From Candidatus Giovannonibacteria bacterium (GTDB lineage: Bacteria > Patescibacteriota > Minisyncoccia > JACPKW01 > UBA11713): a stretch of DNA of 64,000 bases. The translations under genes and the position numbers were made by a program. The notes beneath the pieces are model-generated. The model saw nothing but the letters and a program-made list of their open reading frames with translations, did not search any database and had not been told where the DNA came from. The stretch covers positions 3,163-67,162 of the forward strand of contig JAHFOJ010000002.1 of NCBI GenBank assembly GCA_023266875.1, given 5' to 3'. Below are positions 26,511 through 56,374 of this stretch, piece by piece (position 1 is the first letter of the stretch; the number at the start of each line of letters is the position of its first letter).

Positions 26511-26547
26511 GCCCTAGCGGGGCAATCAATCAAAACCTGCCTAGGGC
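26511..26547. terminator. Hairpin GCCCTAG...CTAGGGC, a probable terminator for the M23 peptidase gene
   Basis: A 7-bp perfect stem with a 23-nt loop, flanked by T-rich runs on both strands. It lies 50 nt past the stop of the 26597..27856 minus-strand gene. Confidence 0.5.
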
Positions 26548-26596
26548 ATTTTTGTTTAAAGAATTATTATTCTTTATTAAAGTTATATATCTCAGC

Positions 26597-30299: not shown

Positions 30300-30306
30300 A
30301 GATAAT

Positions 30307-34294: not shown

Positions 34295-34324
34295 ATAGAA
34301 AATTCTTGCATATCCAATATCAAG

Positions 34325-42232: not shown

Positions 42233-42287
42233 AAATCAAGGATAGATCATTAAGAAGATAAAACCTGACGCGAACTATACCCAAATT

Positions 42288-42325
42288 ATCCCACAAAAAG
42301 CCCTTGGGAATAAGGGATAAAAAAA
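42288..42325. repeat. Direct repeat copy 1, TATCCCACAAAAAGCCCTTGGGAATAAGGGATAAAAA
   Basis: About 38 nt with 34/38 identity to copy 2, 360 nt away. It contains a CCCTT/AAGGG hairpin plus A/T runs. Confidence 0.55.
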
Positions 42326-42352: not shown

Positions 42353-42604
42353 CTATACCTCAACACCGAGTTTGTCTTTGAGAACTCTTTTTATATGCTC
42401 ATGCTCTATCTTCAGTGTTGTATATTCTAAAACCCTATCTAGCAGCTGGGGGAATTCTTCTCTATCCGGTTTTTTGTTAATTTCTTCGGTTAGTCTCTCA
42501 AATCTCTTATCAATATTAATAAGATCGGGATTTAATTCTTTCCTGATTTGTTTAGCAAATGTCTTCAATTCATCCTTTAGATCCTGCTTTGTGATTTGTT
42601 TCAC
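42353..42604 (-). CDS. Hypothetical small charged protein
   Basis: 83-aa ORF that is K/E-rich and predicted helical. It is flanked by the two direct-repeat copies. Confidence 0.4.
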   Translation of the reverse strand: MKQITKQDLKDELKTFAKQIRKELNPDLINIDKRFERLTEEINKKPDREEFPQLLDRVLEYTTLKIEHEHIKRVLKDKLGVEV

Positions 42605-42647: not shown

Positions 42648-42685
42648 TATCCCACAAAAAGCCCGTGGAAATAAGGAATAAAAAT
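42648..42685. repeat. Direct repeat copy 2, TATCCCACAAAAAGCCCGTGGAAATAAGGAATAAAAA
   Basis: See copy 1. Confidence 0.55.
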
Positions 42686-42767: not shown

Positions 42768-44687
42768 ATGAAGACGAAGAAAGCACGATGGATAATCGGA
42801 GGTTTAATTTTTTGGATAGTTGGATTGCTTGAGGGAAAAACTGAAGCAAATTTTGGTGGGCTCCATAGGGAATTTTCCCCATGCGCCCCAGGCAACGGCC
42901 GCGCAGTCGCGTTCAGCCCGGAGAGCAAAAATATTTTCTACACGCTCTGGAACGATACGCGAATATTCATAACCGACCCTAACAACACCACTTGCTCGGC
43001 GATTAATACTGGAATTGTTTTCGGAGCGCTCGCATACGACGGAAAACGCAAACGTCTCTGGGGCGCCGGTTATGACTATGGCCACCGCGGCGGAATTTAT
43101 CTGATTGATTCAAATGGTGCGTCCTCGCTCCAATTCAGCTTCATCCCCAACGAAACAACCTGCCTTCAGAACCAATATCATGGATATTTCACCGGACTTT
43201 CATATGATGAAGGCCCGACTTCATCGAACAGCGATGACTCGCTCTGGCTCGTCGACAATGACGGGAAAACAATTTACCACATGAGTCTGCAAGGCAATTT
43301 AATATCAAGTTCGGTAATTCCAAAGGGACCTCGTACCGGTCTCGTCGGCTGTGCAAATGGCATCGCCTCTGACAGGGACTTCTTGTGGATCACACTTATA
43401 TCTGGGTTGCATGCAGACATAAGCGGCATAATGCCTTTTGACATCGTAAAAGTCAGAAAATCTGACCCATCCACGATCGTCGAAAGTTTTTCTGCGGACA
43501 ACATAAACAACAACAGTCCAATAGGAATAGCGATCGAACGAGGAAAAACCATTCCAGGAAGAACCGGCCTATGGGTCAATTTTACCGGCGGAAATAATAT
43601 TAGACTCTTTGAAGCCGATAAAATCACTCCGGTCATTCTCGTAAACGGCTTTAGTGGCAACGCGGAAAGTTTCGGTCAAATGGCAGAATATCTAGCGCTT
43701 GACGGTTTTCCGGTGTATGTATTTGACTACGGAGAATTTACCGGACTAAATAGCGACATCTCAATCGAAGAAATCGCGGCGCTGTTCGCAGGATATGTTA
43801 ACGACGTCTTAAGAGTGACAGGAACCGGTCAAGTTGATATTGTAGTCCACTCAATGGGCGGACTTGTGGCAAGAGCATGGATCGCCGGCCTTGCGACAGT
43901 TCCGGTAAAATACACAGGACAAATTCGACGTATGATAACGCTCGGCACACTTAATTACGGAGCAGTGGCGGCGTCAATCGCAGATTTGATTATGACCAAT
44001 AACTCACCGATTCAGGGAGACGAGATGGCCCTTGGCAGTAACTTTCTATTAAACCTCCACAAGAATTGGATGGCCTTGAAATCATCAGGCGCGATTCTTC
44101 CTGATATTCTTTTTGTTGCAGGAACAAGCGGCATCGAAAATACTATTGATGAATGCGGCGGGATCGGCTGCTCGGATCAGATTGTCGATATCACAAGCGC
44201 CATTATGCCGGATGCCCCAGCAAACATGGTTCGTTACGTCCCATACATCCACGCGCATATCATGCCGTTGCCGTTCTCTCCGACGTCGATCGCTGAAATA
44301 GATTCAAAGGATCACGCCAGTTACAGAATTGCGAAAGCCTTCCTTGACGACGTAGTCTTGGACCAATGCTGCGACTCCGCCTCAATCGGATACACCCCGC
44401 CCCACGAAAGAAATGTGCCTAAAGAAAAAACGGGGACTCTGATTTTCCAGCTGATTGATAAGAAAGCCCTCACCCCGATTCTCGGCAAAAAAATAACAAT
44501 AAAACTCGATCGCGCAGCAAAAGCCGCGCTAATAGACATCAATTCGGGCACAGCCGGTGTGACAATCTTGAATCTGCCGGAGGGTTTACGCAAAGTAACC
44601 GTATCGGTAAAAGGTCGCAAAAACATAATTCTAAACATTGCAATTAAAGCTGCATACCCAATCGTGATATCAGAAATTGCAATGTGA
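42768..44687 (+). CDS. Secreted multi-domain protein with a class-2 (Bacillus LipA-like) alpha/beta-hydrolase lipase domain
   Basis: A signal peptide and an N-terminal domain of about 280 aa, followed by PVILVNGFSGNAESF ... VDIVVHSMGGLVARAW (the lipase GXSXG nucleophile elbow AHSMGG) and a C-terminal domain of about 230 aa. Confidence 0.75.
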   Translation: MKTKKARWIIGGLIFWIVGLLEGKTEANFGGLHREFSPCAPGNGRAVAFSPESKNIFYTLWNDTRIFITDPNNTTCSAINTGIVFGALAYDGKRKRLWGAGYDYGHRGGIYLIDSNGASSLQFSFIPNETTCLQNQYHGYFTGLSYDEGPTSSNSDDSLWLVDNDGKTIYHMSLQGNLISSSVIPKGPRTGLVGCANGIASDRDFLWITLISGLHADISGIMPFDIVKVRKSDPSTIVESFSADNINNNSPIGIAIERGKTIPGRTGLWVNFTGGNNIRLFEADKITPVILVNGFSGNAESFGQMAEYLALDGFPVYVFDYGEFTGLNSDISIEEIAALFAGYVNDVLRVTGTGQVDIVVHSMGGLVARAWIAGLATVPVKYTGQIRRMITLGTLNYGAVAASIADLIMTNNSPIQGDEMALGSNFLLNLHKNWMALKSSGAILPDILFVAGTSGIENTIDECGGIGCSDQIVDITSAIMPDAPANMVRYVPYIHAHIMPLPFSPTSIAEIDSKDHASYRIAKAFLDDVVLDQCCDSASIGYTPPHERNVPKEKTGTLIFQLIDKKALTPILGKKITIKLDRAAKAALIDINSGTAGVTILNLPEGLRKVTVSVKGRKNIILNIAIKAAYPIVISEIAM

Positions 44688-44699
44688 CCCGCAAAGCAA

Positions 44700-44739
44700 A
44701 AGCCTGACTAGAGGACAGTTTACTCCTCTAGTCAGGCTT
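44700..44739. terminator. Perfect 15-bp stem-loop (AGCCTGACTAGAGGA/TCCTCTAGTCAGGCT), a bidirectional terminator
   Basis: Seen directly. It is followed by TTTTCAG on the plus strand and lies between the convergent lipase and plsC-like genes. Confidence 0.7.
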
Positions 44740-44745
44740 TTCAGA

Positions 44746-45378
44746 TTAAGCGCGAATATTTTCAAAAAGCGCAAGTATTTTTTCGTGTATAACCGCCGTC
44801 CCCTCTTCTACCGTAATCGAATTAGAATCGTCAAGCCTAAACGGCTCCCCGACGCAAATTTGAATATTTCGGCCTTGGGCTTTTATTGCGATGGGGATCA
44901 CCGGGACTTTCGCGCCTAGCGCGATTGCAGATGCCCCGTGGCGAAAAACTCCAAGCGCGCCGCTTTTTTGCACTCGTCCCTCTGGGAACATCACAACCGT
45001 CTCGCCTGACCTTAGAATATCGAGCGGGGTTTTTATGGCAGCGTCTATCCCTTCCCCGCGCTTCGACGGGAAAACCCCCATAATTCTGAACAGCAACGGG
45101 ATGAGGCCAATTTTCCGCAAAAAATCAAGAAATCTGTGATTAAATTTTATATATTCCCCCATATAACGAAGCGGAACGAGCGGCGAGAAAAGCGGCAAAG
45201 AAAGTCCGATTAAAAATGAGTCGTAAAACGCAATATGATTTGAAACTATAAGCACCGGCCCTGCGACGCGTTTAAACTCTTCGCGGCCCGAAATTTTGAC
45301 CTTACGAAAAATATGAAATAGCAGCCAAGAGCCGGGTTTTATTATAAAATTCTGACTAAATTTATACCAATATTTCAT
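44746..45378 (-). CDS. Lysophospholipid/glycerol-3-phosphate acyltransferase family protein (PlsC-like)
   Basis: The NHxxxxD motif (VSNHIAFYDS) and FPEGR motif. Confidence 0.8.
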   Translation of the reverse strand: MKYWYKFSQNFIIKPGSWLLFHIFRKVKISGREEFKRVAGPVLIVSNHIAFYDSFLIGLSLPLFSPLVPLRYMGEYIKFNHRFLDFLRKIGLIPLLFRIMGVFPSKRGEGIDAAIKTPLDILRSGETVVMFPEGRVQKSGALGVFRHGASAIALGAKVPVIPIAIKAQGRNIQICVGEPFRLDDSNSITVEEGTAVIHEKILALFENIRA

Positions 45379-45500
45379 TGCGCGACCTAATTGACGATGT
45401 TAGAAATTATTTAATTTTGTCTTTTAAATATGGTGAGTAAAAATTTCTATACTTAGATTGAAATTCAAAGTCTTTCCAACTATTAGAATCTATAATTTTT

Positions 45501-46646
45501 CTACATTTTAAACATTCCGGCTAGTAAATCTCGAACAATCTCCGCCGTGCCGGCCGCCAGTGAAAAAGCCTGAGAATCTTGCCGAACATGCGAAAGCCAA
45601 TGATCTTCTAAAAATCCCTCGGCTCCGTGTAGGTGAACACATTCGCTAATAATTTTTTGACAATTCTCGTAACTAAATATTTTCAGCATTAAAATTTCTT
45701 TATCCACCGGCTTACCTTCTGCAAAAGCATCACATACCAAGTAGGTAAACTGTCTAGCGGCTTCTATGGTGGTACGCAACTCGACCATTCTATGACGAAT
45801 GACCTGTTTTTTACTAAGCGCTTCGTCAAATCGATGGCGGCTTTGAAGAAAATTAAGAGTGTCCTCCCAAATATAAAGAGCCAAAGAATTCAGCGCCACA
45901 GCTCCAATTAAACGTTCTCTTTGTAATCCGCGTAATAAGTATAGAAACCCTCGCGTGGAATCTCCAAGTAAACTACCCTTGGAGATTGAACAATCCTTAA
46001 AGCAGATCGATGCGGTATCACTTGTCTTTAATCCAACAGTAACGAGTTTCTCTCTTTTTATACCCCTTGCATCACCTGGCACTAAAAACAAACCAAGCGC
46101 CCAAATATCTTTTTGAGTTTTAGTTCGCGCTAATACAACTGTATAGTTGGCAATGGATCCATTTGTTATATATCTTTTTTCACCATTCAATATATAATTT
46201 TTACCTTTTAGCAGAGCCACTGTAGTAATAGATGCTAAGTCTGACCCGCTACTAGGATCAGTGGCAGCAAGCGCAAGATAAAATTTCCCGGCAAGTGCGG
46301 GTTTTAATATTTTTTCCTTTTGCTCATTATTTCCTAATTGAAAAATTAAAGGAGCAACCATGTTGCTTTGCACTAAAATAGACAACGCCCAGCCTAGTAC
46401 TCTAGATCGAGCTAATTCTTCGGCCAAGATAACTTCATGCCAAAAATCTTTATTACCACCCCCAACACTTTCAGGCAGGGAAAGACCGATAAATCCATGC
46501 TCGCCGACTTTCTGAAGTAGATTTACAGGAATACTTCTTGTTTTTTCCCATTCGAGCGCGTGAGGAATTACTTCTTTTGCTATAAATTTTCTAACAGTTT
46601 GCCGGAAATTTTTATGTGGTACATCTTCAAAAATAATAGGCTCCAT
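45501..46646 (-). CDS. Acyl-CoA dehydrogenase family protein, a possible acyl/aminoacyl-carrier-protein dehydrogenase
   Basis: 381 aa with the ACAD N/M/C-domain pattern (...YITNGSIANY..., C-terminal ...GAEGFLEDHWLSHVRQDSQAFSLAAGTAEI). An ACP gene lies immediately upstream. Confidence 0.8.
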   Translation of the reverse strand: MEPIIFEDVPHKNFRQTVRKFIAKEVIPHALEWEKTRSIPVNLLQKVGEHGFIGLSLPESVGGGNKDFWHEVILAEELARSRVLGWALSILVQSNMVAPLIFQLGNNEQKEKILKPALAGKFYLALAATDPSSGSDLASITTVALLKGKNYILNGEKRYITNGSIANYTVVLARTKTQKDIWALGLFLVPGDARGIKREKLVTVGLKTSDTASICFKDCSISKGSLLGDSTRGFLYLLRGLQRERLIGAVALNSLALYIWEDTLNFLQSRHRFDEALSKKQVIRHRMVELRTTIEAARQFTYLVCDAFAEGKPVDKEILMLKIFSYENCQKIISECVHLHGAEGFLEDHWLSHVRQDSQAFSLAAGTAEIVRDLLAGMFKM

Positions 46647-46650
46647 AATA

Positions 46651-46908
46651 TTAAAAAGATTCTATTGGTAGCTTACGCTTACTACTACCCTTGTTCTGAA
46701 TTACATAATCCACAATATCGCCAACTGTCTTAATATGATTCATTTTACTAGGCTCTATTGAAACTTTATATTCATCACTCAAAACAGCAATTAATTCGAC
46801 TATATCCATTGAGTCCTTGGCGATATCTTCGAGAAGTGTAGAATCATTAACCTGATTCGGTTCTTTATATAACGTAGCTCTTATTATTTCTATAATTTCA
46901 TCTTTCAT
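46651..46908 (-). CDS. Acyl carrier protein (phosphopantetheine attachment DSMD)
   Basis: 85 aa with LEDIAKDSMDIVELIAVL, a PP-binding serine motif. Confidence 0.75.
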   Translation of the reverse strand: MKDEIIEIIRATLYKEPNQVNDSTLLEDIAKDSMDIVELIAVLSDEYKVSIEPSKMNHIKTVGDIVDYVIQNKGSSKRKLPIESF

Positions 46909-47456
46909 AATAAATCCTTAAAATAAGTCTTGAATGGCTCTGTGTTTGAAAGCTTGTCATAAACCTCCTCGTCCATTTTCTCCAATTTCTGCATAATCGC
47001 ATCCAATTTCCCCTGACCATTTTCCCGGGCATACTTATCTAATTCTTCGCGTATCCATCCGATGTGACCAGTCTCATCATCAATCATTTTTTGTAAGGCC
47101 TCTTTAACCAGAGGATTTGTATCGGGTAGGTTTAGATGTTTGGTGAATTGATTAAGTGTGCGTTTTTCAAAAACTTGGGTCAAGCAAAAAATCTCAAGGG
47201 TATTTTCCGGCATCCCGAATAATTTCCCATACTCAGTTTGATAAGTTTCCGTCACCTTAACTGGTATACGTCCAAGATCCTTAATCACTTTTGTCCAACG
47301 CCAAGCATGCTCGGCCTCCTCGAGGCAGTGTTCGGTTAGTGGAATTCGATATTCACCTATAGTGGTGTGAAAAGCAAGTTTACCAAACAAGATTGAGCCA
47401 GATAGTTCACACGCACGATAGTAACTGAGAATATATAATTCTTGGTCTGACATCAT
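46905..47456 (-). CDS. Ferritin-like or diiron-carboxylate protein (putative oxidase/oxygenase subunit)
   Basis: 183 aa with the paired EEAEHAWRW and DDETGHIGW (E..H) motifs typical of diiron sites. It overlaps its neighbours by 4 nt. Confidence 0.5.
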   Translation of the reverse strand: MMSDQELYILSYYRACELSGSILFGKLAFHTTIGEYRIPLTEHCLEEAEHAWRWTKVIKDLGRIPVKVTETYQTEYGKLFGMPENTLEIFCLTQVFEKRTLNQFTKHLNLPDTNPLVKEALQKMIDDETGHIGWIREELDKYARENGQGKLDAIMQKLEKMDEEVYDKLSNTEPFKTYFKDLL

Positions 47457-47458
47457 AT

Positions 47459-48157
47459 TTATATTTGTTTATCGGCAAGAGCTTCACTCGGTCGTTTGCC
47501 CACTAATCGTCCCACTTTTTCATTAAAACCTTGGATGATTCTTATATTATCTTCTTTTGCCGGTGAAACTTGTGGCATAACGTACTCTCCTATGTGTTGA
47601 TAGTTTAGTGCGTGTTCAAGTACCTGACCCTTAACCTTAGGGTCTGCTTTGATCATTTCTTCAAGTAAATCAAAAGCGAATTGAGAATGACTGACTTCTT
47701 CGGCAGAAAATCTTGGCAGAAGATTTTTTAAAACCGGCTCTTCGGTGAGTTGTATGAGGTCTCTAAAGAATTCGGCGGCAAAATGTTCGGTGCCCATAAA
47801 ATTTACTAACTCACGTACTTTGTCCGTATATCTTTTATCCTTATCTTTTGAACGCACATCTCTAACTTCTTCATCTGTTACTGGATTGTATCCGACAATT
47901 TCAAGGTATCGTCGTAAAATAAAATAATGACCATATGCCTCAAACGCCTCTATTGTAAAAATTGAAGTTGCCGCCACGTTGTCCCAAAATAGTTCGTTCA
48001 TTTTTCCTGTGTAAATGGGGAGGTAGCACTCCACAAGACAAGCTTCGCGCAACAAGTCTAAACATTTAGTGTTCTTTAATGCCAATTCTTTATTGATTGA
48101 TTTCCAATCAACCCTGCTATCAAAAATTTTACTATTAGCGAAGTCAATGGTTGTCAT
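47459..48157 (-). CDS. Diiron oxidase/oxygenase-like protein (ferritin-like or heme-oxygenase-like fold)
   Basis: 232 aa with EAFEAYGHY, TEHFAAEFF and AEEVSHSQF His/Glu helices. Confidence 0.5.
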   Translation of the reverse strand: MTTIDFANSKIFDSRVDWKSINKELALKNTKCLDLLREACLVECYLPIYTGKMNELFWDNVAATSIFTIEAFEAYGHYFILRRYLEIVGYNPVTDEEVRDVRSKDKDKRYTDKVRELVNFMGTEHFAAEFFRDLIQLTEEPVLKNLLPRFSAEEVSHSQFAFDLLEEMIKADPKVKGQVLEHALNYQHIGEYVMPQVSPAKEDNIRIIQGFNEKVGRLVGKRPSEALADKQI

Positions 48158-48158
48158 A

Positions 48159-48989
48159 TTAGTCTTTTACTCCAATTAGTATTGTTTGTAACTCATTTTG
48201 ATAAGCGTGAATTGTATTAAATCCGGCTTGATTAGCAAGGATTTTTAAAAAATCCTCTGAACGATAGTGGGTATAAAGTTCTGCAATATTTTTCATTAGA
48301 TATTCGGAAAATTTATGCGGCATCATTCCTGATGTAAAAAATATCCCACCTTCTTTTAAATTATTGTGGGCAATTTTATAAAAATGCAGAGTATCCTCAT
48401 CGCTTAAGAACTCAGTGAACCCCGTACAGATAATCATATCGTATTTTTTGTTTTTTCGGTAGCTCTCTTCATTAAACGCATCCCCTTGCCAAAAAAACAT
48501 TTGATGCTTGTGATGATCATTTTTCTTTCCTAATACCTCTATGAGTTCACGATCCAAATCAATTCCATGCCATCTGATGCGCTTATAAAATGGGTGACTC
48601 GCGATTTGTAGTTCATGGGCGACTTCAAAAATTTCTCTCCCGAGTCCACATGGCACTGCTAAAATATCAATCGGCTCTTTGTGACGCACGTTATCTATAA
48701 GATTGTAGATTTCTTCTTTAGCGTGAATATATCTTGATCGGAGGGAACGAGACGACTTTAAATTTAAGAGTATGGAATCAAGTATTTTTCCGATAACAAA
48801 TTTACCCTTGGGTTTATTGGCATAGATATGATCAGCAAATTGATAGCTTCCTGAATTTTTAATTCCTTCACGAGCCAGCTCACTTGTTAATAGTAAATAA
48901 TAAATAGGCAAAAGATAGGACTTTCCCTCTCTCAATAATTTTCTAGGGATCGAGGAAGATTGGCGAGTTTTATTGTAACATTTTGGCAT
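48159..48989 (-). CDS. Class I SAM-dependent methyltransferase
   Basis: Motif I ILAVPCGLGREIF and WHGIDLD, with a Rossmann MTase arrangement. Confidence 0.7.
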   Translation of the reverse strand: MPKCYNKTRQSSSIPRKLLREGKSYLLPIYYLLLTSELAREGIKNSGSYQFADHIYANKPKGKFVIGKILDSILLNLKSSRSLRSRYIHAKEEIYNLIDNVRHKEPIDILAVPCGLGREIFEVAHELQIASHPFYKRIRWHGIDLDRELIEVLGKKNDHHKHQMFFWQGDAFNEESYRKNKKYDMIICTGFTEFLSDEDTLHFYKIAHNNLKEGGIFFTSGMMPHKFSEYLMKNIAELYTHYRSEDFLKILANQAGFNTIHAYQNELQTILIGVKD

Positions 48990-49743
48990 ATTTTTTGAAT
49001 TTCTTTGGCCAGGTCTTTTGGTCGCCCCCCCAAACTTTTAAACTATAGGCGGTCAATCTTTCTATACCAAAAGCAACACAGAGAGAGTTTGAAAAAGTCT
49101 TGCCATTTTTTATGTCGAAGCGTTTCCCAAAAAAATCTTCGTGATTGTTTATTGAAGCTAACGCGATTTTTCTTTTTCCATCATGTACTATAAATTCTTG
49201 TTTGAGACCTTTAAGTTGCTGAATCATTTTTGCCCCCTCATCTTGTCCAAGAAAGAAAGCATCTGTGGCATTTTTAAACTCACCATTGAACCCGAAATCA
49301 GTAAGGGTTGTTTTTACTAAATCTTCAATCCTCTTAATTTTTTCGATAATCTCTTTTTCATTTCCAATAATTACCAATTCAACCATATGAAAATCTGGGA
49401 GACGATATGGTGATTGCCAATTTCCATTCTCATATCTTGCGCAATGAGCCATTCCAAATGCGGCGTACTTCTTTACGTCTTTACCTTTTAGTTCGGGATA
49501 TACATGTAGGCAAGCCGCCGGTGTTACAAATTGCTCTGTTGAATTAAGAGTATTCATTGCAGTAAAAAGTTGATTTGGAAAATGTTTAAAATATTTTGCA
49601 TCAAACAAAACCTTTTTCGAAATGAAAAGAGGCGGGTTGAAAACTGAATCATAATGGGGACGGAAAATGTTATGCAAAAATAACACCCACGCTTGGAATA
49701 AGCGTATTTTTTGCAACATCGATTTATTATGAGTTTTAGTCAT
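48970..49743 (-). CDS. Truncated seryl-tRNA-synthetase-like class II catalytic core, a putative amino acid:[carrier-protein] ligase
   Basis: 257 aa lacking the N-terminal tRNA-binding arm. Motif 2-like is ...HCARYENG...YRLPDFHMVELVI (compare SerRS CFRREAG...RVHQFEKVE). Motif 3-like is CVAFGIERL. It overlaps the downstream ACP gene by 8 nt. Confidence 0.65.
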   Translation of the reverse strand: MTKTHNKSMLQKIRLFQAWVLFLHNIFRPHYDSVFNPPLFISKKVLFDAKYFKHFPNQLFTAMNTLNSTEQFVTPAACLHVYPELKGKDVKKYAAFGMAHCARYENGNWQSPYRLPDFHMVELVIIGNEKEIIEKIKRIEDLVKTTLTDFGFNGEFKNATDAFFLGQDEGAKMIQQLKGLKQEFIVHDGKRKIALASINNHEDFFGKRFDIKNGKTFSNSLCVAFGIERLTAYSLKVWGGDQKTWPKKFKKYAKMLQ

Positions 49744-49969
49744 CGCTCTTCAAAAATGTTTCCACTATCTTCCGAACAGATTCAAAATTTGGCATTATAA
49801 CTTCATCGTCTGTTAATTTTCGTCCCAAATGCTTTTCTATATAGCCGATAAGATCGAGAATATTCATTGAATCTAATACTTTATCCTTAAATAGGAGGGT
49901 ATTTGAATCGATGGTTCGACCCTTATCACGACAAATGCTTTTTATAAATTTTAGAAGTTCCTGTTGCAT
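49736..49969 (-). CDS. Acyl/aminoacyl carrier protein (phosphopantetheine attachment DSMN)
   Basis: 77 aa with KVLDSMNILDLIGYIE, a PP-binding serine. Confidence 0.75.
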   Translation of the reverse strand: MQQELLKFIKSICRDKGRTIDSNTLLFKDKVLDSMNILDLIGYIEKHLGRKLTDDEVIMPNFESVRKIVETFLKSDD

Positions 49970-49970
49970 A

Positions 49971-51131
49971 TTATTGAATTTTACCCCATTTAGATTTTAT
50001 GCAGTACTCTATAACTTTTCCGTAGTAATCGCGAATACCCGGCAAATGCTTTTTATAATCTGGGAGCATCGCCAACAGACTGTTTTGGAAAAAGTTTTTT
50101 GGATAGAGAAGTTGATGGGCAAAATGATTAAGAGCGGATAATACGTTTTTTAAAACGGGATTATTTGCGGATACCGCTGAATTCATAAAGAGGTCAAAAG
50201 CCTCTTCTGATACAATAGCTGGTTTAGGATAGTTTTTTTCTACCCAGCTAGAGTCTGCTTCTGCCATGCCCTTAAAACTCTCATCTATGATTTCTTGCAG
50301 GGTTAGTGATCCTGATCCGTGTGTAATATGAAAAGTTTTATTTGGGGAAAAGTTATTCCAAAAGAGGTTAAAAAGAGTACTCGCCGTATAGTCACTCGAA
50401 ATGAGATCAACAGAGTAGTTAGGAGTACCAGGAAACATTGAAGCTAAGCCAAGATACATCATGCGTATTGCTTGGTGGGGTGCAGTAAAATGACTAACCT
50501 TTCCTGTTTTACTATCGCCAATTACCGTAGAAAGGCGGTATATAGCCACAGGAACACTTTTAGCCAAGTTCTTCAAAAATACCTCCGCTTCATATTTGGA
50601 TTGCTCGTATGTATTTACAAAACCAGCCTCATGTTCTAACTCGTTTTCTTTGATAATCCCTATTCTTTTGCCGCTTACGTAAGCTGTGCTTATAAAGCCA
50701 AATTGTTTGAGGTTAGAACACTTTTGACCAAAGTCAGCAACATTTTTTGTGCCGGTAACATTTATTTGTCTTGCTTCACCCAGCGGAAGATCAAATCTCG
50801 TAGAGGCGGCACAGTGAAAAATATGGGTCGTTTTACCAAGTAGATCGTTATAGTCGGAAGAACTTTCTACCCCCATATTCTGTTTTGTGATATCGCCCTT
50901 TATAATTTGTAATCTTTCCATGAATTCTTTTTTATTTTGCAATGCAAAAAATGATTGTAAAATCGTTTTTTTATCACCACCCGATCCCTTGTCATGTACT
51001 AAAAGATAGATATTTGCTTGAGTATTTTTAAACAAAAGAGAAACGAGCTCTCTCCCTACCATCCCCGTGCCACCGGTAATAAAAATTTGTTGCGCCATAT
51101 ACTCTAATGTTGCAAGATTAGACAAGACCAA
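49971..51131 (-). CDS. NAD(P)-dependent thioester reductase (fatty acyl-CoA/ACP reductase-like, NAD_binding_4/SDR fold)
   Basis: Rossmann ITGGTGMVG, catalytic YEQSK (YxxxK), and a length and organisation typical of terminal reductase (R) domains. Confidence 0.7.
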   Translation of the reverse strand: MVLSNLATLEYMAQQIFITGGTGMVGRELVSLLFKNTQANIYLLVHDKGSGGDKKTILQSFFALQNKKEFMERLQIIKGDITKQNMGVESSSDYNDLLGKTTHIFHCAASTRFDLPLGEARQINVTGTKNVADFGQKCSNLKQFGFISTAYVSGKRIGIIKENELEHEAGFVNTYEQSKYEAEVFLKNLAKSVPVAIYRLSTVIGDSKTGKVSHFTAPHQAIRMMYLGLASMFPGTPNYSVDLISSDYTASTLFNLFWNNFSPNKTFHITHGSGSLTLQEIIDESFKGMAEADSSWVEKNYPKPAIVSEEAFDLFMNSAVSANNPVLKNVLSALNHFAHQLLYPKNFFQNSLLAMLPDYKKHLPGIRDYYGKVIEYCIKSKWGKIQ

Positions 51132-52075
51132 TTGGCTCCAAAGCCAAACGTAAATAACGCCAGATAATCTCCTTTTTTAAGATAGCCATCTTTATCCATA
51201 TCTACGAGATTAATAATATGATCACAAGAAACGGTGTGACCAACTCGTGATATATTTTTTGACCAAATCTTTTCCATTGGAGTGTGAAGTAGCTTTGAGA
51301 GTATCTCCCAACTCCTTAAACTCACATTATGAGGTACAAACCATTTAATATCTGACATGGTTAATCCCGCCCCCTTAACTGCGTTTTCAATTGTCCGTTG
51401 TGCCATTGGAAAATAAGAAGCTAATAATTCGTTTTCATGTTGCGGGGTATCCCAGTAGTAGGATTGAAATTCTTGATGAAAATATACTATCCTATTCTTT
51501 TCGGAATTTTTGGTGACTACAAGTGCTGCCGTGGCATCACTCATAATGTTGTACATAATTTCTCTTTTGGTTCCAGCTGGTAATGCATCAACAGCTGCGC
51601 ATAGTATTGATTCTTGTTGCGTGTTTGAGTTAGAAAGCAATTGATCCGCCAGATCAATTGCAGATAACAATCCGCTGCAACCCTGTTGAGATAGACCAAT
51701 TGCGTTCGCATTAAAAAGCCCAAGCTTATGTCGAAGCTCTGCGGCCGGATAACGAAATAAATTCAATGCGTTACCCTCATCTTGGTTATTAGCACTGTTG
51801 ATTCCGGAGTATAAAAAAATTCGAGTAATACTATCACCGGTAGTTTTATTTTCGCGCAAGACTTCTTCGGCGCTATTTAATAAAAGACCCTCAATGCTCT
51901 CGTTGTTGCTTTGAACATAACATTCCCTAAATCCAAAATCGTGCAATACTGATACAGGCGAAGTGATCTTCTTTTCTTCCTCGAGTTGTTCAAGCGACTT
52001 CTTATTTCTGGGAAGCCGATATGCCAGCGCCGCTATACCAATTGATGTTTGGCTTTTGTCTATATTTTTTTTCAT
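51104..52075 (-). CDS. 3-oxoacyl-ACP synthase III (FabH-like) ketosynthase/acyltransferase
   Basis: The active-site Cys block GCSGLLSAIDLA, the His block WFVPHNVS and the C-terminal FGFGANWSCLIL, all in the thiolase fold. Confidence 0.75.
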   Translation of the reverse strand: MKKNIDKSQTSIGIAALAYRLPRNKKSLEQLEEEKKITSPVSVLHDFGFRECYVQSNNESIEGLLLNSAEEVLRENKTTGDSITRIFLYSGINSANNQDEGNALNLFRYPAAELRHKLGLFNANAIGLSQQGCSGLLSAIDLADQLLSNSNTQQESILCAAVDALPAGTKREIMYNIMSDATAALVVTKNSEKNRIVYFHQEFQSYYWDTPQHENELLASYFPMAQRTIENAVKGAGLTMSDIKWFVPHNVSLRSWEILSKLLHTPMEKIWSKNISRVGHTVSCDHIINLVDMDKDGYLKKGDYLALFTFGFGANWSCLILQH

Positions 52076-52694
52076 AAGCTACGCTGATATAAAAATCTTT
52101 TACCTTAAATGGCCAAACATACCAAATAGGCGATTTAAATTTATGCATCTTAACTTTAAAAGTTGTATTTTTAATCTTATCAATAATTTCTGCTTGTTTG
52201 GGAGGTATAGCAAAACCAACCCCGACTCCTTTCATAACTGACTCTTTGATAACCCAGATTAGGCTTATTATATCTGTTCTACTCCCAAAAAAATTTTGCA
52301 CTAAGTCTATCTCATTCTGGTCAGCAACATAGTTAAGAAGAGATTTTTTATGAGGTCTAATCTTCTCTATGTCGATACCTACTTTATATGGAGCGACAAC
52401 TCCAATTCCTCGATCATACGAATGACTCAATGAATAATAAATATTATACCGTCCTTCAATATACGGCAATCCATTTTCGGCATTTTTAATAGTTACATCC
52501 TTATCTAAATCCTCGGCGACATAGTTGGTCAGGGCTTGTTTTAATGCAATGCGTCCTAGCAAAAAATCTTTCTTTCTATTATTGGAGAGTTGGCGATATT
52601 GATGAAGTTCGTTTTTATTTAGCTTCGACTTGGCATTGGAATCGATTTTATTAATGCCGACTATACTGGATGTCATGCTTATATAATCACACAA
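52002..52694 (-). CDS. 4'-phosphopantetheinyl transferase (Sfp type)
   Basis: VGIDIEKI (GxDxE) and WVIKESVMKGVGVG (W..KEA..K motif). Confidence 0.75.
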   Translation of the reverse strand: MCDYISMTSSIVGINKIDSNAKSKLNKNELHQYRQLSNNRKKDFLLGRIALKQALTNYVAEDLDKDVTIKNAENGLPYIEGRYNIYYSLSHSYDRGIGVVAPYKVGIDIEKIRPHKKSLLNYVADQNEIDLVQNFFGSRTDIISLIWVIKESVMKGVGVGFAIPPKQAEIIDKIKNTTFKVKMHKFKSPIWYVWPFKVKDFYISVAYEKKYRQKPNINWYSGAGISASQK

Positions 52695-52713
52695 AATCTG
52701 TTATAATTCAACT

Positions 52714-53214
52714 ATGATTTTAACCTACATTTATTTGGGTTTGGTATTACTTGGACTTTGTTTTATTGCTTTTCGAAATAAGACTTCACTATTAAGGGGC
52801 GATAGATTTTTAAGATTCAACTTATTTTTTTTAATAATATCAGTGGTAATTGTTTTTGTAAGAAAAACATCCCTAGAAGACTTAATCATGATTGGTCTAG
52901 CATTTGTTGTAATAATTTCGTTTTTGTTTAGAAACAAGTGGCTGCTATTTAAATACTCATCTCTTAAAACATCGGCTGTTGTAGAAGACTCATTATCAAG
53001 AGTTTTGATACCATTTCAAAAAACAGAGAGTGGATATATACTTAAACCGACACCAGAAGGAAGTACTTATTTGCGATTGGCGAATTTTTGGCCAAATTGT
53101 GCTATTATTATTTTCGGAGGCGATTGGCATTTAAAAAAGGTCGAGGTGCTAAAAAACCTTCTCAAGAAAAATTTTTCTGGGGTATTCCCCAAACTAGTAA
53201 TTAAATTAAAATAA
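52714..53214 (+). CDS. Hypothetical integral membrane protein
   Basis: 166 aa with about 4 TM helices. It is divergent from the biosynthetic operon. Confidence 0.4.
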   Translation: MILTYIYLGLVLLGLCFIAFRNKTSLLRGDRFLRFNLFFLIISVVIVFVRKTSLEDLIMIGLAFVVIISFLFRNKWLLFKYSSLKTSAVVEDSLSRVLIPFQKTESGYILKPTPEGSTYLRLANFWPNCAIIIFGGDWHLKKVEVLKNLLKKNFSGVFPKLVIKLK

Positions 53215-53218
53215 CCTT

Positions 53219-53656
53219 ATGTCACGAGTTACTAAAGTAGCTTCAATAAAAGCAGAGCCAGCTAAGGTGATAGAGTACATTGCTAATGTAAAAAATCATC
53301 CAGCTTTTATTTCGGCACTAAAATCAATCGACAACCTCAATGGGGATCCAAAGCACATGGGTGAAAGCTGGGATTGGACATTCGTTATGGGCGGAGTTGA
53401 GATCAATGGTAAGGCAGAGACGGCTGACTATGTGGCAGGCAAACACTATTCGTTCAAAACCACCGGTGGTATAGTAAGCGCTTTTAGCTACAGTGTTGAG
53501 CCCGAAGATGGCGGTGCAAGACTGACTATGGATGTGAACTATGAAGTTCCACAAAATGTGCTTGCCAAAGCAATGGACAAAGCTGTTGTTGAGCGATTGA
53601 ACAATCAAGAAGGTGATCGAGCGGTTGAGAATCTTCAAGCTATACTCGGAGTTTAA
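53219..53656 (+). CDS. SRPBCC (START/Bet v1/polyketide cyclase-like) ligand-binding protein
   Basis: 145 aa with ...AEPAKVIEYIANVKNHPAF... and a fold-typical pattern. Confidence 0.65.
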   Translation: MSRVTKVASIKAEPAKVIEYIANVKNHPAFISALKSIDNLNGDPKHMGESWDWTFVMGGVEINGKAETADYVAGKHYSFKTTGGIVSAFSYSVEPEDGGARLTMDVNYEVPQNVLAKAMDKAVVERLNNQEGDRAVENLQAILGV

Positions 53657-53687
53657 TGAATTTCTTGTCCGGCATTGTTCCAATGCT

Positions 53688-54287
53688 ATGGTTGTATTTG
53701 CTCAATATTGCTTTTACCTTATCTCCCATCCTCTATTTAAGATATTTTTTCAACCAAAAATCGTTGGCATCGAACATATACCAACGAGGCCTTTCATTGT
53801 AGCGGCAAATCATACTTCAAAAATAGACCCGTTTCTTTTGTGTCTATTACCTTTTTCAGCAGCTAAACAATTGATGCCAATTTATTTTTTAACCAGTGAA
53901 TATTATTATAAAAAATGGTATCTCAAGCCTATATTAAAATTGTTTGGTTGTTATCCCGTAGCGAAAAGGGCATGGACAATGGAAGAATTTTTGTCCAGCA
54001 GTCTTAAGAAACTAAAGAATGGAAAGGTAATCATGTTTTTCCCTGAGGGGAAAATTATAAATGATGGCAAGAGAGATAAACCTCGGCCAGGGATTGGATA
54101 TTTAATCGAAAAATCAAGTAAGCCGATTTTACCCTTACACATAGAGTGGGGTAAAAACAAAGCCCTCGCTCCTAAAAAATTAAAACTTTCTTTTGGTAAG
54201 TTACTGTCATTCCAAAATGAGAGTGGACAACTAAATTCTTATGGAAAAACAGCAGAAAAAATAATGGCAAATATTTATTCATTATAA
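53688..54287 (+). CDS. Second PlsC-family acyltransferase
   Basis: The NHxxxxD motif (AANHTSKIDP) and FPEGK motif. The ATG at 53688 is more likely than the track start. Confidence 0.75.
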   Translation: MVVFAQYCFYLISHPLFKIFFQPKIVGIEHIPTRPFIVAANHTSKIDPFLLCLLPFSAAKQLMPIYFLTSEYYYKKWYLKPILKLFGCYPVAKRAWTMEEFLSSSLKKLKNGKVIMFFPEGKIINDGKRDKPRPGIGYLIEKSSKPILPLHIEWGKNKALAPKKLKLSFGKLLSFQNESGQLNSYGKTAEKIMANIYSL

Positions 54288-54376
54288 ACTATTAGCTATC
54301 GGAAAATCTCTCATAATTGAGCATATCGGTCGCGCAAGTGGGTTAGCCCACATACTTCCTCGATACAAAATGTTGT

Positions 54377-54454
54377 TGGCGCCCCCGCCGGGATTTGAAC
54401 CCGGGTTACATGGATGAGAACCATGCGTCCTGGACCAGGCTAGACGACAGGGGC
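54377..54454 (-). tRNA. tRNA-Glu (anticodon CTC)
   Basis: Manual cloverleaf: GCCCCTG acceptor, anticodon stem CATGG/CCATG with loop TTCTCAT, T-arm CCGGG-TTCAAAT-CCCGG and 3' GCCA. The 5' half resembles canonical tRNA-Glu. Confidence 0.8.
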
Positions 54455-54552: not shown

Positions 54553-55851
54553 TTAAATCTTCTTCCATTCCTCTTCCTGCCTCACCAAAAGTCCAGATTT
54601 TCGCTCCGGCTCTGCCATAATTTGCTCCACAACTTTTTCCATCCGCATCGATTGCGAGCCTTTCACTAAAATTAGATCGCCGGACTCAAGTTTTCTTTCA
54701 AGATCAATCCCCGCCTCTGCTGAATCGTTAAAATAAAAAATATTCTCCTTTATAAATCCTGAAGCAATCGCGCCCTCCGCGAAAAATTTAGAGCGCACTC
54801 CTACAATAAAAAGAATATTAGTATATTTTGATAGTTTCTCCCCTATCTCGCGGTGCGCTGGAATAGTGAAGCGACCGAGTTCGGTCATATCTCCCAAAAC
54901 AGCGATGCGGCGTTTCGCTTTAAGCGCCCGCAGAACCTCAAGCGACGCTAAAAGTGCCTTAGGCGAAGAATTATATGTGTCGTCCAAAACGTAAGAATCT
55001 TTTAGTCCGCGGATCAAGTTTAAGCGTCCGGGCGGAGATTCGAAACGTGACAATGCGCTTACCGCGTCCTCCAACTTTATTTTCATTGCAAGGCCGCATC
55101 CAAGCGCCGCAAGCGCGGCATATATTTGATGTTTGCCGAACGTATTTAAAATTTTTACAGGATATTCTTCTTCAAGATGCTTAACTTTAAATTCCATACC
55201 CTCAGGAACAGACATCCTCCCCTCTTTTCTTGTGAATATTTCATATTTAGATCCAGAAAAATCGGCTTTTTTTGAAAAACCGAAAGTTAAAATTTTCGCG
55301 CTTATTTTCTCGCGTATTTTCATAATCTCTTCGTCATCTGAATTCAACAGGACTGTATCATCCGGCCCTAAATCTTTAACCAATTCAAATTTTTCACGGA
55401 ACACTTCCTCAGGCCCAGAAAAAAATTCCACATGCACAGGAGTCGGCTGAAGCGCTGTTATGACCGCAATGTCTGGTTTAAGATATGTGCGAATTTTTTG
55501 GATATCGCCGGGGCGATCAGCTCCAATTTCAAGCACAAGCAACTTGGGATATTTCTCGCGAAATAAAATAAGCTTAAGCCCCTTAGCGATCGCATCGAGC
55601 CATTTGGAAACTGAATGCCATCCGGTTTCCGCTCCAATAATCGTAAGCGGAACGCCAAGTTCGCTATTGTAGCTTTTCTGGCTTTTGCGAATTTCTATAG
55701 ATTGGCCAAGCACCAAAGCGATAGCGTCTTTGGCAGAAGTTTTTCCAACCGATCCAGTCACCGCAACAATTTTTGGCTTATATTTCTTGAGAATTAGCCT
55801 CGATTCCCAAGTTAAAATAGCTACGACAATTTTCTTAAGGAAATCCCGCAT
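54553..55851 (-). CDS. murF: UDP-N-acetylmuramoyl-tripeptide--D-alanyl-D-alanine ligase MurF
   Basis: Mur ligase P-loop VTGSVGKTSAKD and the central and C-terminal Mur ligase domains. Confidence 0.88.
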   Translation of the reverse strand: MRDFLKKIVVAILTWESRLILKKYKPKIVAVTGSVGKTSAKDAIALVLGQSIEIRKSQKSYNSELGVPLTIIGAETGWHSVSKWLDAIAKGLKLILFREKYPKLLVLEIGADRPGDIQKIRTYLKPDIAVITALQPTPVHVEFFSGPEEVFREKFELVKDLGPDDTVLLNSDDEEIMKIREKISAKILTFGFSKKADFSGSKYEIFTRKEGRMSVPEGMEFKVKHLEEEYPVKILNTFGKHQIYAALAALGCGLAMKIKLEDAVSALSRFESPPGRLNLIRGLKDSYVLDDTYNSSPKALLASLEVLRALKAKRRIAVLGDMTELGRFTIPAHREIGEKLSKYTNILFIVGVRSKFFAEGAIASGFIKENIFYFNDSAEAGIDLERKLESGDLILVKGSQSMRMEKVVEQIMAEPERKSGLLVRQEEEWKKI

Positions 55852-55867
55852 ATCCCAATTATACCAA

Positions 55868-56374
55868 TTATACCAAGAATGGCTCTCTTTTGCGCTTGCG
55901 CGCGAAAAACCAAATATACAAAATAACAAGTAATATTACGTCGGGAATTAAAATTTCGGGCGAAGCCCAAGGGTGCCCATTTATTTCAAAATGCGAGAAA
56001 GGCCATAAAAATGGAGTTGGAAAAAATTTATAGGAGTGGGTTGGTATGTCCATTAAGATGTGAAGTCCCCAAGCGGAAAATTCCCAAAGCGGCCGCCTTA
56101 AAATAATCCACAAAAGACCGAACAGAAGCACAAAGACGAATAGACTGTGGCTTATATTGTAAACTTGATAGACAAACTGCGGAATAGAATCCGGCACCGG
56201 CGGCTCCGCTGAAAAATTTGGTCTCGGAACAATCCTCAAAAACATTAAAACAAAAAATGGCCCGAAGGCGATGAGGTCTGGCAGGATTCCGAACACAAAA
56301 GAAAGCCAGAAACTTTTTTTTGATTTCCGTCCGAACGCAACGCCTCCCCATAGGCCGTGCGAGATTATATCCAT
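55868..56374 (-). CDS. Membrane-bound metal-dependent hydrolase (YdjM/DUF457-like)
   Basis: 168-aa polytopic membrane protein with conserved His residues (MDIISHGLWG..., ...DIPTHSY...). Confidence 0.5.
   Translation of the reverse strand: MDIISHGLWGGVAFGRKSKKSFWLSFVFGILPDLIAFGPFFVLMFLRIVPRPNFSAEPPVPDSIPQFVYQVYNISHSLFVFVLLFGLLWIILRRPLWEFSAWGLHILMDIPTHSYKFFPTPFLWPFSHFEINGHPWASPEILIPDVILLVILYIWFFARKRKREPFLV

Follow-up and report, generated by a model that had tools for sequence, protein, structure and literature searches.

A probably acquired amino-acid/carrier-protein biosynthetic cassette at the murF–tRNA-Glu locus of a Candidatus Giovannonibacteria bacterium

Is the AT-rich block that precedes a tRNA-Glu(CTC) gene in the genome of a Candidatus Giovannonibacteria bacterium a genomic island, and what kind of chemistry do its genes encode? 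The block lies within a stretch of 64,000 nucleotides (assembly GCA_023266875.1, contig JAHFOJ010000002.1, positions 3,163 to 67,162 of the forward strand), hereafter referred to as the window, with coordinates counted from its first letter. An initial annotation had interpreted it as a lipid-centred island bounded by a strong terminator at 44.7 kb and the tRNA gene. The best overall explanation, which we consider probable, is that positions 45.5–54.3 kb hold a horizontally acquired, self-contained biosynthetic cassette located at a synteny breakpoint on the 3' side of the ancestral murF–tRNA-Glu pair. That the block is an acquired cassette can be stated with high confidence and, with nearly as much, its genes are predicted to specify a pathway in which an amino acid is processed on carrier proteins, and not the usual metabolism of fatty acids or phospholipids.

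The genes spanning positions 45501–54287 exhibit a GC content of 36.8%, compared with 43.0% in the remainder of the window. For the interval named in the initial annotation (44742–54376) the value was 37.3%, against a mean of 43.2% (sd 1.1, minimum 41.0) for non-overlapping 9.6-kb segments, and the 9.6-kb segment with the lowest GC of the whole window begins at 45201. At the level of individual genes, the 14 genes between 44.7 and 54.3 kb showed a GC of 0.370 and a GC at third codon positions of 0.330, versus 0.436 and 0.425, respectively, elsewhere in the window (Mann-Whitney p ~1e-6), and their synonymous-codon distance from the window pool was 0.198 versus 0.159 for the genes outside (p = 0.007). 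Furthermore, tetranucleotide usage, normalised for GC (zero-order), correlated between 45501–54287 and the remainder with a coefficient of only 0.696, whereas 200 size-matched controls gave 0.958±0.009 with a minimum of 0.932, which places the cassette about 29 sd away from the controls. Five 5-kb tetranucleotide windows were flagged, all of them over 46–55 kb. Since the tetranucleotide deviation survives zero-order normalisation, the anomaly is not an effect of GC alone, and the block at 45.5–54.3 kb is compositionally foreign. The AT-richness first noticed by eye was thus borne out, sliding GC, tetranucleotide and codon-usage calculations all deviate in the block, and a uniform composition, the outcome named beforehand as speaking against an island, is not what the calculations gave.

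The cassette consists of a 10-gene minus-strand operon, whose gene junctions range from -74 to +4 nt, and a divergent plus-strand trio, together covering about 8.9 kb. Its 13 genes are as follows (ACP, acyl carrier protein; KAS III, β-ketoacyl-ACP synthase III; aaRS, aminoacyl-tRNA synthetase; SerRS, seryl-tRNA synthetase; SAM, S-adenosylmethionine; LCAD and IVD, long-chain acyl-CoA and isovaleryl-CoA dehydrogenase):

45501–46646, minus strand: acyl-CoA/ACP dehydrogenase (ACAD) of the LCAD/IVD type, with three Pfam ACAD domains; last cassette gene
46651–46908, minus strand: carrier protein ACP2 (Pfam PP-binding, 8.6e-10), with Ser33 in a DSM motif
46905–47456, minus strand: fer183, a diiron four-helix-bundle protein (E17, E47xxH50, E97, E128xxH131) without a Pfam family
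47459–48157, minus strand: fer232, a ferritin-like diiron protein without a Pfam family; its family profile matches the acyl-ACP desaturase DesA2 (1.1e-9)
48159–48989, minus strand: SAM-dependent methyltransferase (Methyltransf_20, Pfam PF12147, 1.9e-13)
48970–49743, minus strand: aaRS-like amino acid:[carrier protein] ligase of 257 aa (Pfam tRNA-synt_2b), a truncated methanogen-type SerRS catalytic core
49736–49969, minus strand: carrier protein ACP1 (Pfam PP-binding, 1e-3), with Ser34 in a DSM motif
49971–51131, minus strand: stand-alone thioester reductase (NAD_binding_4, PF07993, 2.2e-52; NCBIfam Thioester-redct, 1.9e-30), with TGxxGxxG and YxxxK motifs
51104–52075, minus strand: KAS III (FabH)-like enzyme (Pfam ACP_syn_III_C, 9e-19), aligned to FabH 2ebd
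52002–52694, minus strand: Sfp-type 4'-phosphopantetheinyl transferase (Pfam ACPS, 4.4e-14); first operon gene
52714–53214, plus strand: orf166, a 166-aa membrane protein with about three N-terminal transmembrane helices by hydropathy and without a Pfam or NCBIfam match
53219–53656, plus strand: SRPBCC (Polyketide_cyc2) protein (Pfam PF10604, 2.2e-13)
53613–54287, plus strand: PlsC#2, a lysophospholipid-type acyltransferase (Pfam PF01553, 7.5e-19), with the HX4D motif at H67–D72

The limits of this unit are set by comparison with two other metagenomic loci, L059 and L153. The window aligned to L059 from 54134 to 45501 in a single collinear high-scoring segment pair of 8,654 bp (80.9% identity) that ends precisely at the ACAD stop codon, and the alignment with L153 ends at the equivalent point, 45502. 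The left edge is therefore placed at about 45.5 kb and not at the terminator, because homology with both loci ends at that codon; this moves the boundary first proposed by about 0.8 kb. A strong hairpin does exist at 44.7 kb, with a stem of 18 bp where 15 bp had first been described, but it is not the island boundary. Likewise, the operon is one of 10 tightly packed genes instead of the 11 first counted, the additional acyltransferase gene, PlsC#1, being separated from it by a 122-bp gap.

The same collinear block, with other flanks, is present in at least three further low-GC genomes. Only 67 protein clusters related to the aaRS-like ligase were detected; more than 518 relatives were retrieved from JGI metagenomes, and the best 80 loci were examined by tblastn with the window proteins. 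Among these best 80, about 50 loci, mostly of 55–72% GC, contained a collinear core comprising the KAS III-like enzyme, thioester reductase, ACP1, ligase, methyltransferase, fer232, fer183 and ACP2, often accompanied by the phosphopantetheinyl transferase, the SRPBCC protein and orf166. One ligase relative is named Candidatus Dormibacteraeota. The loci most informative for the history of the cassette are listed below with their ligase identity to the window:

L059 (ligase 78%): architecture identical from PlsC#2 to ACAD, followed by a 370-bp GC-rich spacer, tRNA-Phe, GIY-YIG and GH130 genes
L153 (ligase 57%): the whole cassette, with PlsC#2 adjoined by a fragment (the C-terminal 202 aa) of a large serine recombinase (PF13408; L153 positions 3027–3635)
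L060 (ligase 53%): shorter core amid toxin-antitoxin and glycosyltransferase genes
L068/L069 (ligase ~41%): 0.47-Mb contig of 63% GC; a DDE transposase adjoins a KAS III-like gene that is truncated (~6900–8600)

The L153 recombinase is decayed, the frames upstream of the fragment being full of stops. Cassette GC lay within 0–3 points of flank GC in 15 of the 17 other loci measured, and the only large contrast among those 17 was that of L059 (-5.4 points, compared with -6.2 in the window), whereas in L073 cassette and flanks alike have 35% GC. In a neighbour-joining tree built on ligase, methyltransferase and fer232, the window grouped with L059 and, as sister to this pair, L073, followed by loci of 50% and 68% GC and then by a locus of 32% GC, all within high-GC clades; overall, cassette-bearing hosts span a GC of 0.32–0.72. 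Different flanks, the spread of host GC, the composition contrast and the nesting in the tree together argue for horizontal transfer, most simply from a ~35%-GC, L073-like lineage into hosts of ~43% GC.

Two palindromic hairpins of 33 nt, near-identical and one compensatory change apart, lie at the ends of the L059 cassette (~34–66 and ~9252–9290), and the non-coding, GC-rich spacer between its ACAD and tRNA-Phe genes (8879–9250) is without an Rfam match. A phage-borne origin was also considered and found no support, as the ligase family had no match in a scan of viral contigs. None of the plasmids in PLSDB carries fer232 or fer183, with one weak SRPBCC match only, and the plasmid-borne ligase homologs sit in unrelated biosynthetic gene clusters.

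At its right-hand side the cassette faces the following gene, whose 3' end points toward it:

54377–54454, minus strand: tRNA-Glu(CTC), identified by ARAGORN and Rfam

The adjoining MurF (54553–55929) is 57–62% identical to proteins of Candidatus Giovannonibacteria and other Paceibacteria, its best non-self match reaches 68%, and its best species representative in GTDB is a Wildermuthbacteria metagenome-assembled genome at 46%. The host is therefore a Paceibacteria-type member of the candidate phyla radiation (CPR) without close sequenced relatives. In two relatives, L064 and L067, murF is followed by tRNA-Glu(CTC) in the same orientation (87–89% nucleotide identity to that of the window), and past the tRNA gene come RmuC, L21, RecR, DnaB and CysRS, with three additional small genes in L067 and no cassette in either; in L065/L066, ddl follows murF. 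Thus tRNA-Glu is an ancestral neighbour of murF. In the window, its former neighbours are found elsewhere:

14284–24669, plus strand: displaced murF–tRNA-Glu neighbours, namely ddl, Pur-DNA-glycosylase, a 125-aa gene, RmuC, L21, RecR, DnaB, CysRS, CorA, CtpB, L9, L27 and a 118-aa gene

This segment is collinear with L064, L067 and L065 (tblastn identities of 47–81%) and lies about 40 kb from murF, inverted relative to it; to regain the ancestral order of the Giovannonibacteria-like relatives, a single inversion between points near 14.3 and 54.4 kb would suffice. Since the ddl-to-L27 block sits inverted about 40 kb away, the 3' flank of tRNA-Glu is a synteny breakpoint and not a clean insertion site, and excision of the cassette would not recreate an empty site, because the ancestral downstream genes lie elsewhere. 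The tRNA-side junction is also found in an independent ENA assembly, which argues against an assembly chimera at that junction. The comparison with relatives proposed in the initial annotation therefore gave a block absent from the murF–tRNA-Glu locus of L064 and L067 and present elsewhere with other neighbours (L059, L153, L060, L068), and not one shared position of the block in every relative, which had been named beforehand as speaking against an island.

The dcw (division and cell wall) cluster is split, with murF about 20 kb from mraY, murD, ftsW and murG (29175–35377 versus 54553–55929) and an amidohydrolase gene (32696–34294) between mraY and murD; mraZ, rsmH, ftsI and greA were not found in the window. 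At ~13000–27000 a positive GC skew gives way to a negative one and the predominant gene strand shifts from plus to minus, a switch that could reflect a replication-terminus-like convergence or an effect of inversion.

Two other accounts of how the block came to lie here have to be weighed. One is a classic, integrase-mediated island inserted in the 3' end of tRNA-Glu, which would extend over 44.7–54.4 kb, take in PlsC#1 and have a functional link with the lipase. The orientation of the tRNA gene toward the low-GC block, the variable content past tRNA-Glu among relatives, the tRNA-Phe at the opposite end of the L059 cassette and the recombinase remnant of L153, which lies at the end matching the tRNA side of the window, count in favour of this account. 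It is nevertheless very unlikely, and largely refuted by the lack of a direct repeat: segments of 12–25 nt from the 3' half of tRNA-Glu had no repeat in the 64 kb, at 44.7 kb (where one had been suggested) or anywhere else, the sole match being a chance 14-mer with a mismatch at 12.6 kb. Moreover, as first noted, no integrase is present: all 13 cassette genes and the flanks carry functions other than integrase or recombinase, and tblastn of the L153 recombinase fragment against the window gave no match. Removal of the block would leave ddl and RmuC 40 kb off and inverted, PlsC#1 and the lipase are native-like or high in GC and absent from related cassettes, and a tRNA gene is near the cassette in only 3 of 38 loci, so that tRNA adjacency is not a cassette trait. 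The tRNA gene proposed as an insertion boundary is thus better described as an ancestral murF neighbour at a rearrangement breakpoint. The other account holds the cluster to be native and vertically inherited, with a composition made odd by low expression, amino-acid composition or relaxed selection, and with flanks that differ through the extensive rearrangement common in CPR genomes. It agrees with the lack of mobility genes in the window, with a genome plainly rearranged relative to its relatives, with the same contrast in the L059 host of similar GC, as a shared ancestor would give, and with further low-GC patches at 39.7–42.7 kb. Against it stand a GC-normalised tetranucleotide signature far outside all control segments, the absence of the block at a conserved anchor in Giovannonibacteria-like relatives, and nearest cassette relatives that reside in hosts of 32–68% GC and are nested among high-GC soil clades. 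In addition, the L059 cassette proteins are 68–93% identical to those of the window, while no MurF exceeds 68% in 5.8e9 clusters, and remnants of mobility genes adjoin the cassette in two other genomes. Vertical inheritance consequently appears as improbable as tRNA-targeted insertion, and acquisition of a cassette at a rearranged site is preferred over both.

The predicted products of the acquired cassette point to a pathway that starts from an amino acid. The best solved-structure match of the ligase is the Bll0957 amino acid:[ACP] ligase (PDB 3mey, 9e-13). It also matched NCBIfam PRK07080 (1.6e-25, 89.7 bits), under the curated cut-off of 357 bits, and represents a divergent, shorter subfamily. 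Class II motifs 2 and 3 are present and a tRNA-binding domain is absent; across 29 homologs, C78/E122/C222, R103xE105 and G226..R229 are invariant. In the alignment to Bll0957, residues C78, E122 and C222 fall in its segments PAAC, FRMRE and CVAFG, which we take to provide its zinc ligands. The ACP1 and ligase genes overlap by 8 nt, and their order is kept in all loci. In the KAS III-like enzyme, Cys133, Asn250, His280 and Asp285 are invariant among 29 homologs, whereas the canonical His249 is variable (H/S/Q) and the Asn of the FabH GNT motif is replaced by an invariant His. This non-canonical catalytic set suggests acyl transfer or a non-standard condensation. By contrast with type II fatty-acid synthesis, where a Cys-His-Asn triad would be expected, the cassette has no malonyl transferase, ketoreductase, dehydratase or enoyl reductase domains (no FabD, FabG, FabZ or FabI); adenylation or condensation domains of nonribosomal peptide synthetases (NRPS) are also absent from it, and Pfam and NCBIfam revealed no CDP-alcohol (cytidine diphosphate-alcohol), phosphotransferase or glycosyl head-group enzymes.

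The two diiron proteins and the dehydrogenase are proposed to act on carrier-bound intermediates. The fer232 protein, with E43, E73, H77, E124, E154, H157 and H188 invariant, is rare, with 107 matches among 1.84e9 representative clusters. The fer183 family profile matched symerythrin (1.5e-5), while the match of fer183 to AurF (PF11583; 0.0045, 16.6 bits) is below the gathering score of 29.6; AurF was matched by 10 of 16 fer183 family members (best 2e-7), as well as weakly by the L153 orthologue, and Ferritin, COQ7 and Rubrerythrin were matched about equally, all sub-threshold. In high-GC soil loci fer183 is fused in-frame to ACP2 in proteins of 274–283 aa:

fer183–ACP2 fusions in 11 loci: L093, L094, L099, L104, L109, L115, L117, L123, L131, L148 and one further locus

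These gene fusions tie the substrate of fer183 to ACP2. The ACAD is closest to long-chain and isovaleryl types (1e-65 to 1e-49; PDB 2pg0 1e-65, LCAD 9e-62) and more distant from prolyl-ACP dehydrogenase (3e-36); it occurs in some cassette versions only (L059, L077, L137, L153). The SRPBCC protein is the most conserved cassette protein, with 52–62% identity in loci where the ligase retains only 30–42%, and orf166 has homologs in 13 loci, kept beside the SRPBCC gene. PlsC#2, which matched the NCBIfam acyl-ACP--phospholipid O-acyltransferase domain (1.2e-22), is an accessory gene of the low-GC (CPR-type) copies only (L059, L073, L153). The initial description of the block as holding only lipid and acyl-carrier functions therefore does not hold, given its aaRS-like ligase, methyltransferase, two diiron proteins and thioester reductase; the two PlsC-like acyltransferases (both with HX4D), the SRPBCC protein and the membrane protein (three transmembrane helices) are all there as described, except that PlsC#1 lies outside the unit.

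From this gene set we propose the following route. The Sfp-type phosphopantetheinyl transferase, whose domain is clear, would convert both carrier proteins to their holo forms, and the aaRS-like ligase would adenylate a small amino acid and load it onto ACP1, a step well supported by the homology of the ligase, its catalytic residues and the translational coupling of ligase and ACP1. ACP2 would carry a second substrate, probably an aliphatic acyl group, on which fer183 would act and, in some cassette versions, the LCAD-like dehydrogenase as well; fer232 would be desaturase-like. The KAS III-like enzyme would then join the two units or transfer one to the other, acyl transfer being likelier than decarboxylative condensation, the methyltransferase would methylate an intermediate, and the stand-alone thioester reductase, judging from its domain, would release the product as an aldehyde or alcohol. 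More speculatively, the SRPBCC and small membrane proteins may bind or process a hydrophobic product and, in the CPR lineage, PlsC#2 may esterify this product or couple it to a lysolipid. An amino-acid start, a second carrier-bound unit, oxidation and methylation, and reductive release form the supported core of this predicted pathway. The likeliest product is a derivative of an amino acid that has been acylated, oxidised and released by reduction; a product of the lipo-amino-alcohol type is possible but tentative. Still more doubtful is the complete version, in which a ligase-primed carrier, KAS III-like coupling to the ACP2-bound unit, and diiron and methyl tailoring would constitute a new route that releases a fragin- or sphingoid-base-like lipo-amino aldehyde or alcohol, extended by the CPR-added PlsC#2.

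Several points weigh against the proposed origin and pathway. The window contains neither integrase nor transposase genes and neither att nor terminal repeats, and a search for long direct or inverted repeats bracketing the cassette found none. The relatives at the murF locus are distant (MurF ~60% identical) and much rearranged, so that the absence of the block from them counts for less; the neighbour-joining tree carries no support values; and the window and L059 hosts are alike in GC and perhaps related, such that one older acquisition followed by relocation might account for both copies. With regard to the pathway, the model provides neither a loader for ACP2 nor a source of acyl chains in a CPR host; to our knowledge, such hosts are presumed to lack fatty-acid synthesis. 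Finally, single-sequence structure models (mean pLDDT, the predicted local distance difference test score, of 48 and 44) were not usable.

Among known systems, the ligase most resembles the amino acid:[carrier protein] ligases Bll0957 and Bll6282 of Bradyrhizobium and Atu2573 of Agrobacterium, which are truncated homologs of methanogen-type SerRS and with which it shares motifs 2 and 3, the Cys-Glu-Cys triad, the lack of a tRNA-binding domain and the coupling to a small carrier-protein gene. Unlike them, it has 257 instead of 346 aa, is only ~30% identical over the core and sits in a fixed cassette of 10–13 genes. The physiological role of the rhizobial enzymes was reportedly left open at their original description, and we know of no established physiological product for this ligase class. 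Aminoacyl-ACP tailoring is familiar from the aminomalonyl-ACP of zwittermicin (ZmaG-J), from butirosin (BtrI/J/K/O/H) and from the prolyl-PCP (peptidyl carrier protein) dehydrogenase, in which a free-standing carrier is aminoacylated and modified by an ACAD-like enzyme or oxygenase before transfer, loading being carried out by NRPS-type adenylation or ATP-grasp enzymes. Homologs of the ligase occur in plasmid clusters of Bacillus and Streptomyces together with ACP, KAS III, ACAD or BtrH-like genes, which recalls these pathways; none of the zwittermicin, butirosin and prolyl-PCP systems, however, has the fixed set of thioester reductase, methyltransferase and two ferritin-like proteins found in the cassette. 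In Bacillus wiedmannii plasmid p536 (L152, 450–469 kb), a distant ligase homolog (31% identical) and an ACP coupled to it are accompanied by three KAS III-like genes, an ACAD, a BtrH-like protein and another carrier protein; this is a further uncharacterised aminoacyl-ACP cluster, in this case of a cultured organism. A likeness to phospholipid synthesis is limited to the PlsC-type HX4D motif of PlsC#1 and PlsC#2. We also considered an alkane pathway like the cyanobacterial one of acyl-ACP reductase and aldehyde-deformylating oxygenase (AAR/ADO), which pairs a reductase with a ~230-aa ferritin-like protein, and rejected it: fer232 has no match to the ADO family, and such a pathway would leave no role for the ligase, the methyltransferase and the other diiron protein. 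No description of this cassette was found in the literature.

The closest functional analogy is offered by the pvf and ham systems (Pseudomonas PvfABCD and Burkholderia HamABCDE; valdiazen, fragin and pyrazine N-oxides), which combine an NRPS with adenylation, thiolation and reduction (A-T-R) domains with two oxygenases, one of them an AurF-like diiron N-oxygenase, and with a polyketide cyclase/dehydrase protein (PMC11659414). The cassette could accordingly make a small N-oxygenated amino-acid signal or metallophore, with ligase, ACP1 and thioester reductase in place of the A-T-R NRPS, a diiron N-oxygenase, and the SRPBCC protein in the position of PvfD or HamE. Both inventories provide for tethering of an amino acid to a carrier, for diiron tailoring and for release by reduction, and both include an SRPBCC protein, which in the cassette is the most conserved component; the AurF matches within the fer183 family point in the same direction, and fragin, the ham product, is additionally N-acylated. 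Yet the A-T-R functions reside on three cassette proteins, with an aaRS-like ligase instead of an adenylation domain; the AurF matches are under the family threshold and no better than those to other diiron families; fer183 is fused to ACP2, which is not the partner of the ligase; and nothing in pvf or ham corresponds to the KAS III-like enzyme, the second ACP, the methyltransferase or the ACAD. Moreover, the LCAD-like ACAD, the DesA2-like fer232, the KAS III-like enzyme and PlsC#2 suggest an aliphatic chain. The likeness to PvfA-D or HamA-E is one of described function and not of compared sequences, SRPBCC and PvfD/HamE sharing the Pfam superfamily PF10604 only. Because an NRPS is lacking and the AurF assignment is sub-threshold, membership in pvf/ham is not supported, and a product of this kind is unlikely. 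A second alternative follows the initial annotation in assuming that the secreted lipase frees host fatty acids for re-esterification by the PlsC pair, while a specialised head group is synthesised by the operon. In its favour, a stretch of 12 kb brings together a lipase, a pair of HX4D acyltransferases, an SRPBCC protein and a membrane protein, PlsC#2 accompanies the cassette in the low-GC lineage only, and CPR bacteria are thought to recycle host lipids, acquired lysophospholipase and acpP having been described in Patescibacteria (PMC12455944). Nonetheless, lipase and PlsC#1 lie outside the transferred unit and differ from it in composition, the lipase is an orphan, no head-group enzyme is present, and about 50 loci of large-genome, high-GC bacteria that make their own lipids have the core but neither a lipase nor a PlsC gene. 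Because it is shared with soil bacteria that have no need for lipid scavenging, the self-contained amino-acid/carrier pathway fits this idea only loosely; the sequence from lipase to acyltransferases to head group is weakened, though loosely compatible, and we regard it as slightly less credible still than a pvf/ham-like product.

The immediate left flank of the cassette contains the following features:

44746–45378, minus strand: PlsC#1 acyltransferase (Pfam PF01553, 5.4e-17; HX4D at H48–D53), 45.5% GC, outside the cassette
44698–44741, strandless: terminator hairpin with a perfect 18-bp stem and an 8-nt loop, between the convergent lipase and PlsC#1 genes
42768–44687, plus strand: Lipase_2/alpha-beta hydrolase (Pfam) whose N-terminus is signal-like and whose nucleophile elbow reads HSMGG, 47.1% GC

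All three are outside the transferred unit, and an orthologue of PlsC#1 is present in none of the L059, L073 and L153 cassettes. A terminator scan found nothing in the gap between the operon and PlsC#1, which may be co-transcribed with it through read-through. The hairpin at 44698–44741, predicted to be a bidirectional terminator, was overlooked by the promoter/terminator scan (8-nt loop, short tail) and was read directly from the sequence. The class-2 lipase upstream, although present as described, does not belong to the low-GC unit: its GC is the highest in the neighbourhood, no family was assigned to its N-terminal ~280 and C-terminal ~230 aa, and a search of 5.8 billion protein clusters yielded two partial homologs only (44–47% identity over ~40% of its length). 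It is an unrelated orphan accessory gene of different composition from the cassette.

Further upstream, a 37-nt direct repeat (42287–42323 and 42648–42684, 92% identical, with a terminator-like minus-strand hairpin in each copy) flanks an 83-aa coiled-coil open reading frame (42353–42604, minus strand) in a patch of 32% GC between methyltransferase and lipase, which looks like a small inserted or duplicated module. At 39720–42232 (38.4% GC), a 7TM-HisKA histidine kinase, with no adjoining response regulator, is translationally coupled to a Methyltransf_20-like methyltransferase, a paralogue of the cassette methyltransferase (24% identical). Rfam gave only spurious miRNA hairpin matches at 39–45.6 kb. 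The stretch from 39.7 to 54.4 kb is thus a ~15-kb mosaic of accessory genes of differing GC (cassette 36.8%, PlsC#1 45.5%, lipase 47.1%, repeat-flanked patch 32%, kinase and methyltransferase 38.4%), beyond which the next syntenic genes are a class II aaRS, ScpA, ScpB and S11 peptidase at 35.4–39.1 kb.

Taken as a genomic island, the block is unremarkable, having been inserted at a site prone to rearrangement and with no mobility machinery that can be recognised; the cassette itself is of greater value. Compositionally deviant islands, and acquired lipid-related genes such as lysophospholipase and acpP, are known from metagenome-assembled genomes of Patescibacteria, and biosynthetic gene clusters are uncommon in their streamlined genomes (PMC12455944); unlike those islands, the cassette is a complete carrier-protein cluster with its own phosphopantetheinyl transferase. 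It is a rare, uncharacterised type of gene cluster distributed across several phyla and built on an aaRS-like ligase, whose core gene order is kept from the CPR to high-GC soil bacteria such as Dormibacterota, and it brings with it two diiron families and a membrane protein without a Pfam model, together with an unusual KAS III-like catalytic set. With its fixed gene set and the fer183–ACP2 fusions, the pathway lends itself directly to testing by heterologous expression. Should the route to a lipo-amino aldehyde or alcohol prove true, amino acid:[carrier protein] ligases would gain the physiological role still missing for them, and an ultra-small, presumably lipid-auxotrophic bacterium would make its own membrane-active or signalling lipid by a horizontally acquired route. 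CPR bacteria are seen as metabolically minimal symbionts, and the presence of a complete foreign carrier-protein pathway in one of them shows that elaborate chemistry can be imported, possibly for interaction with the host.

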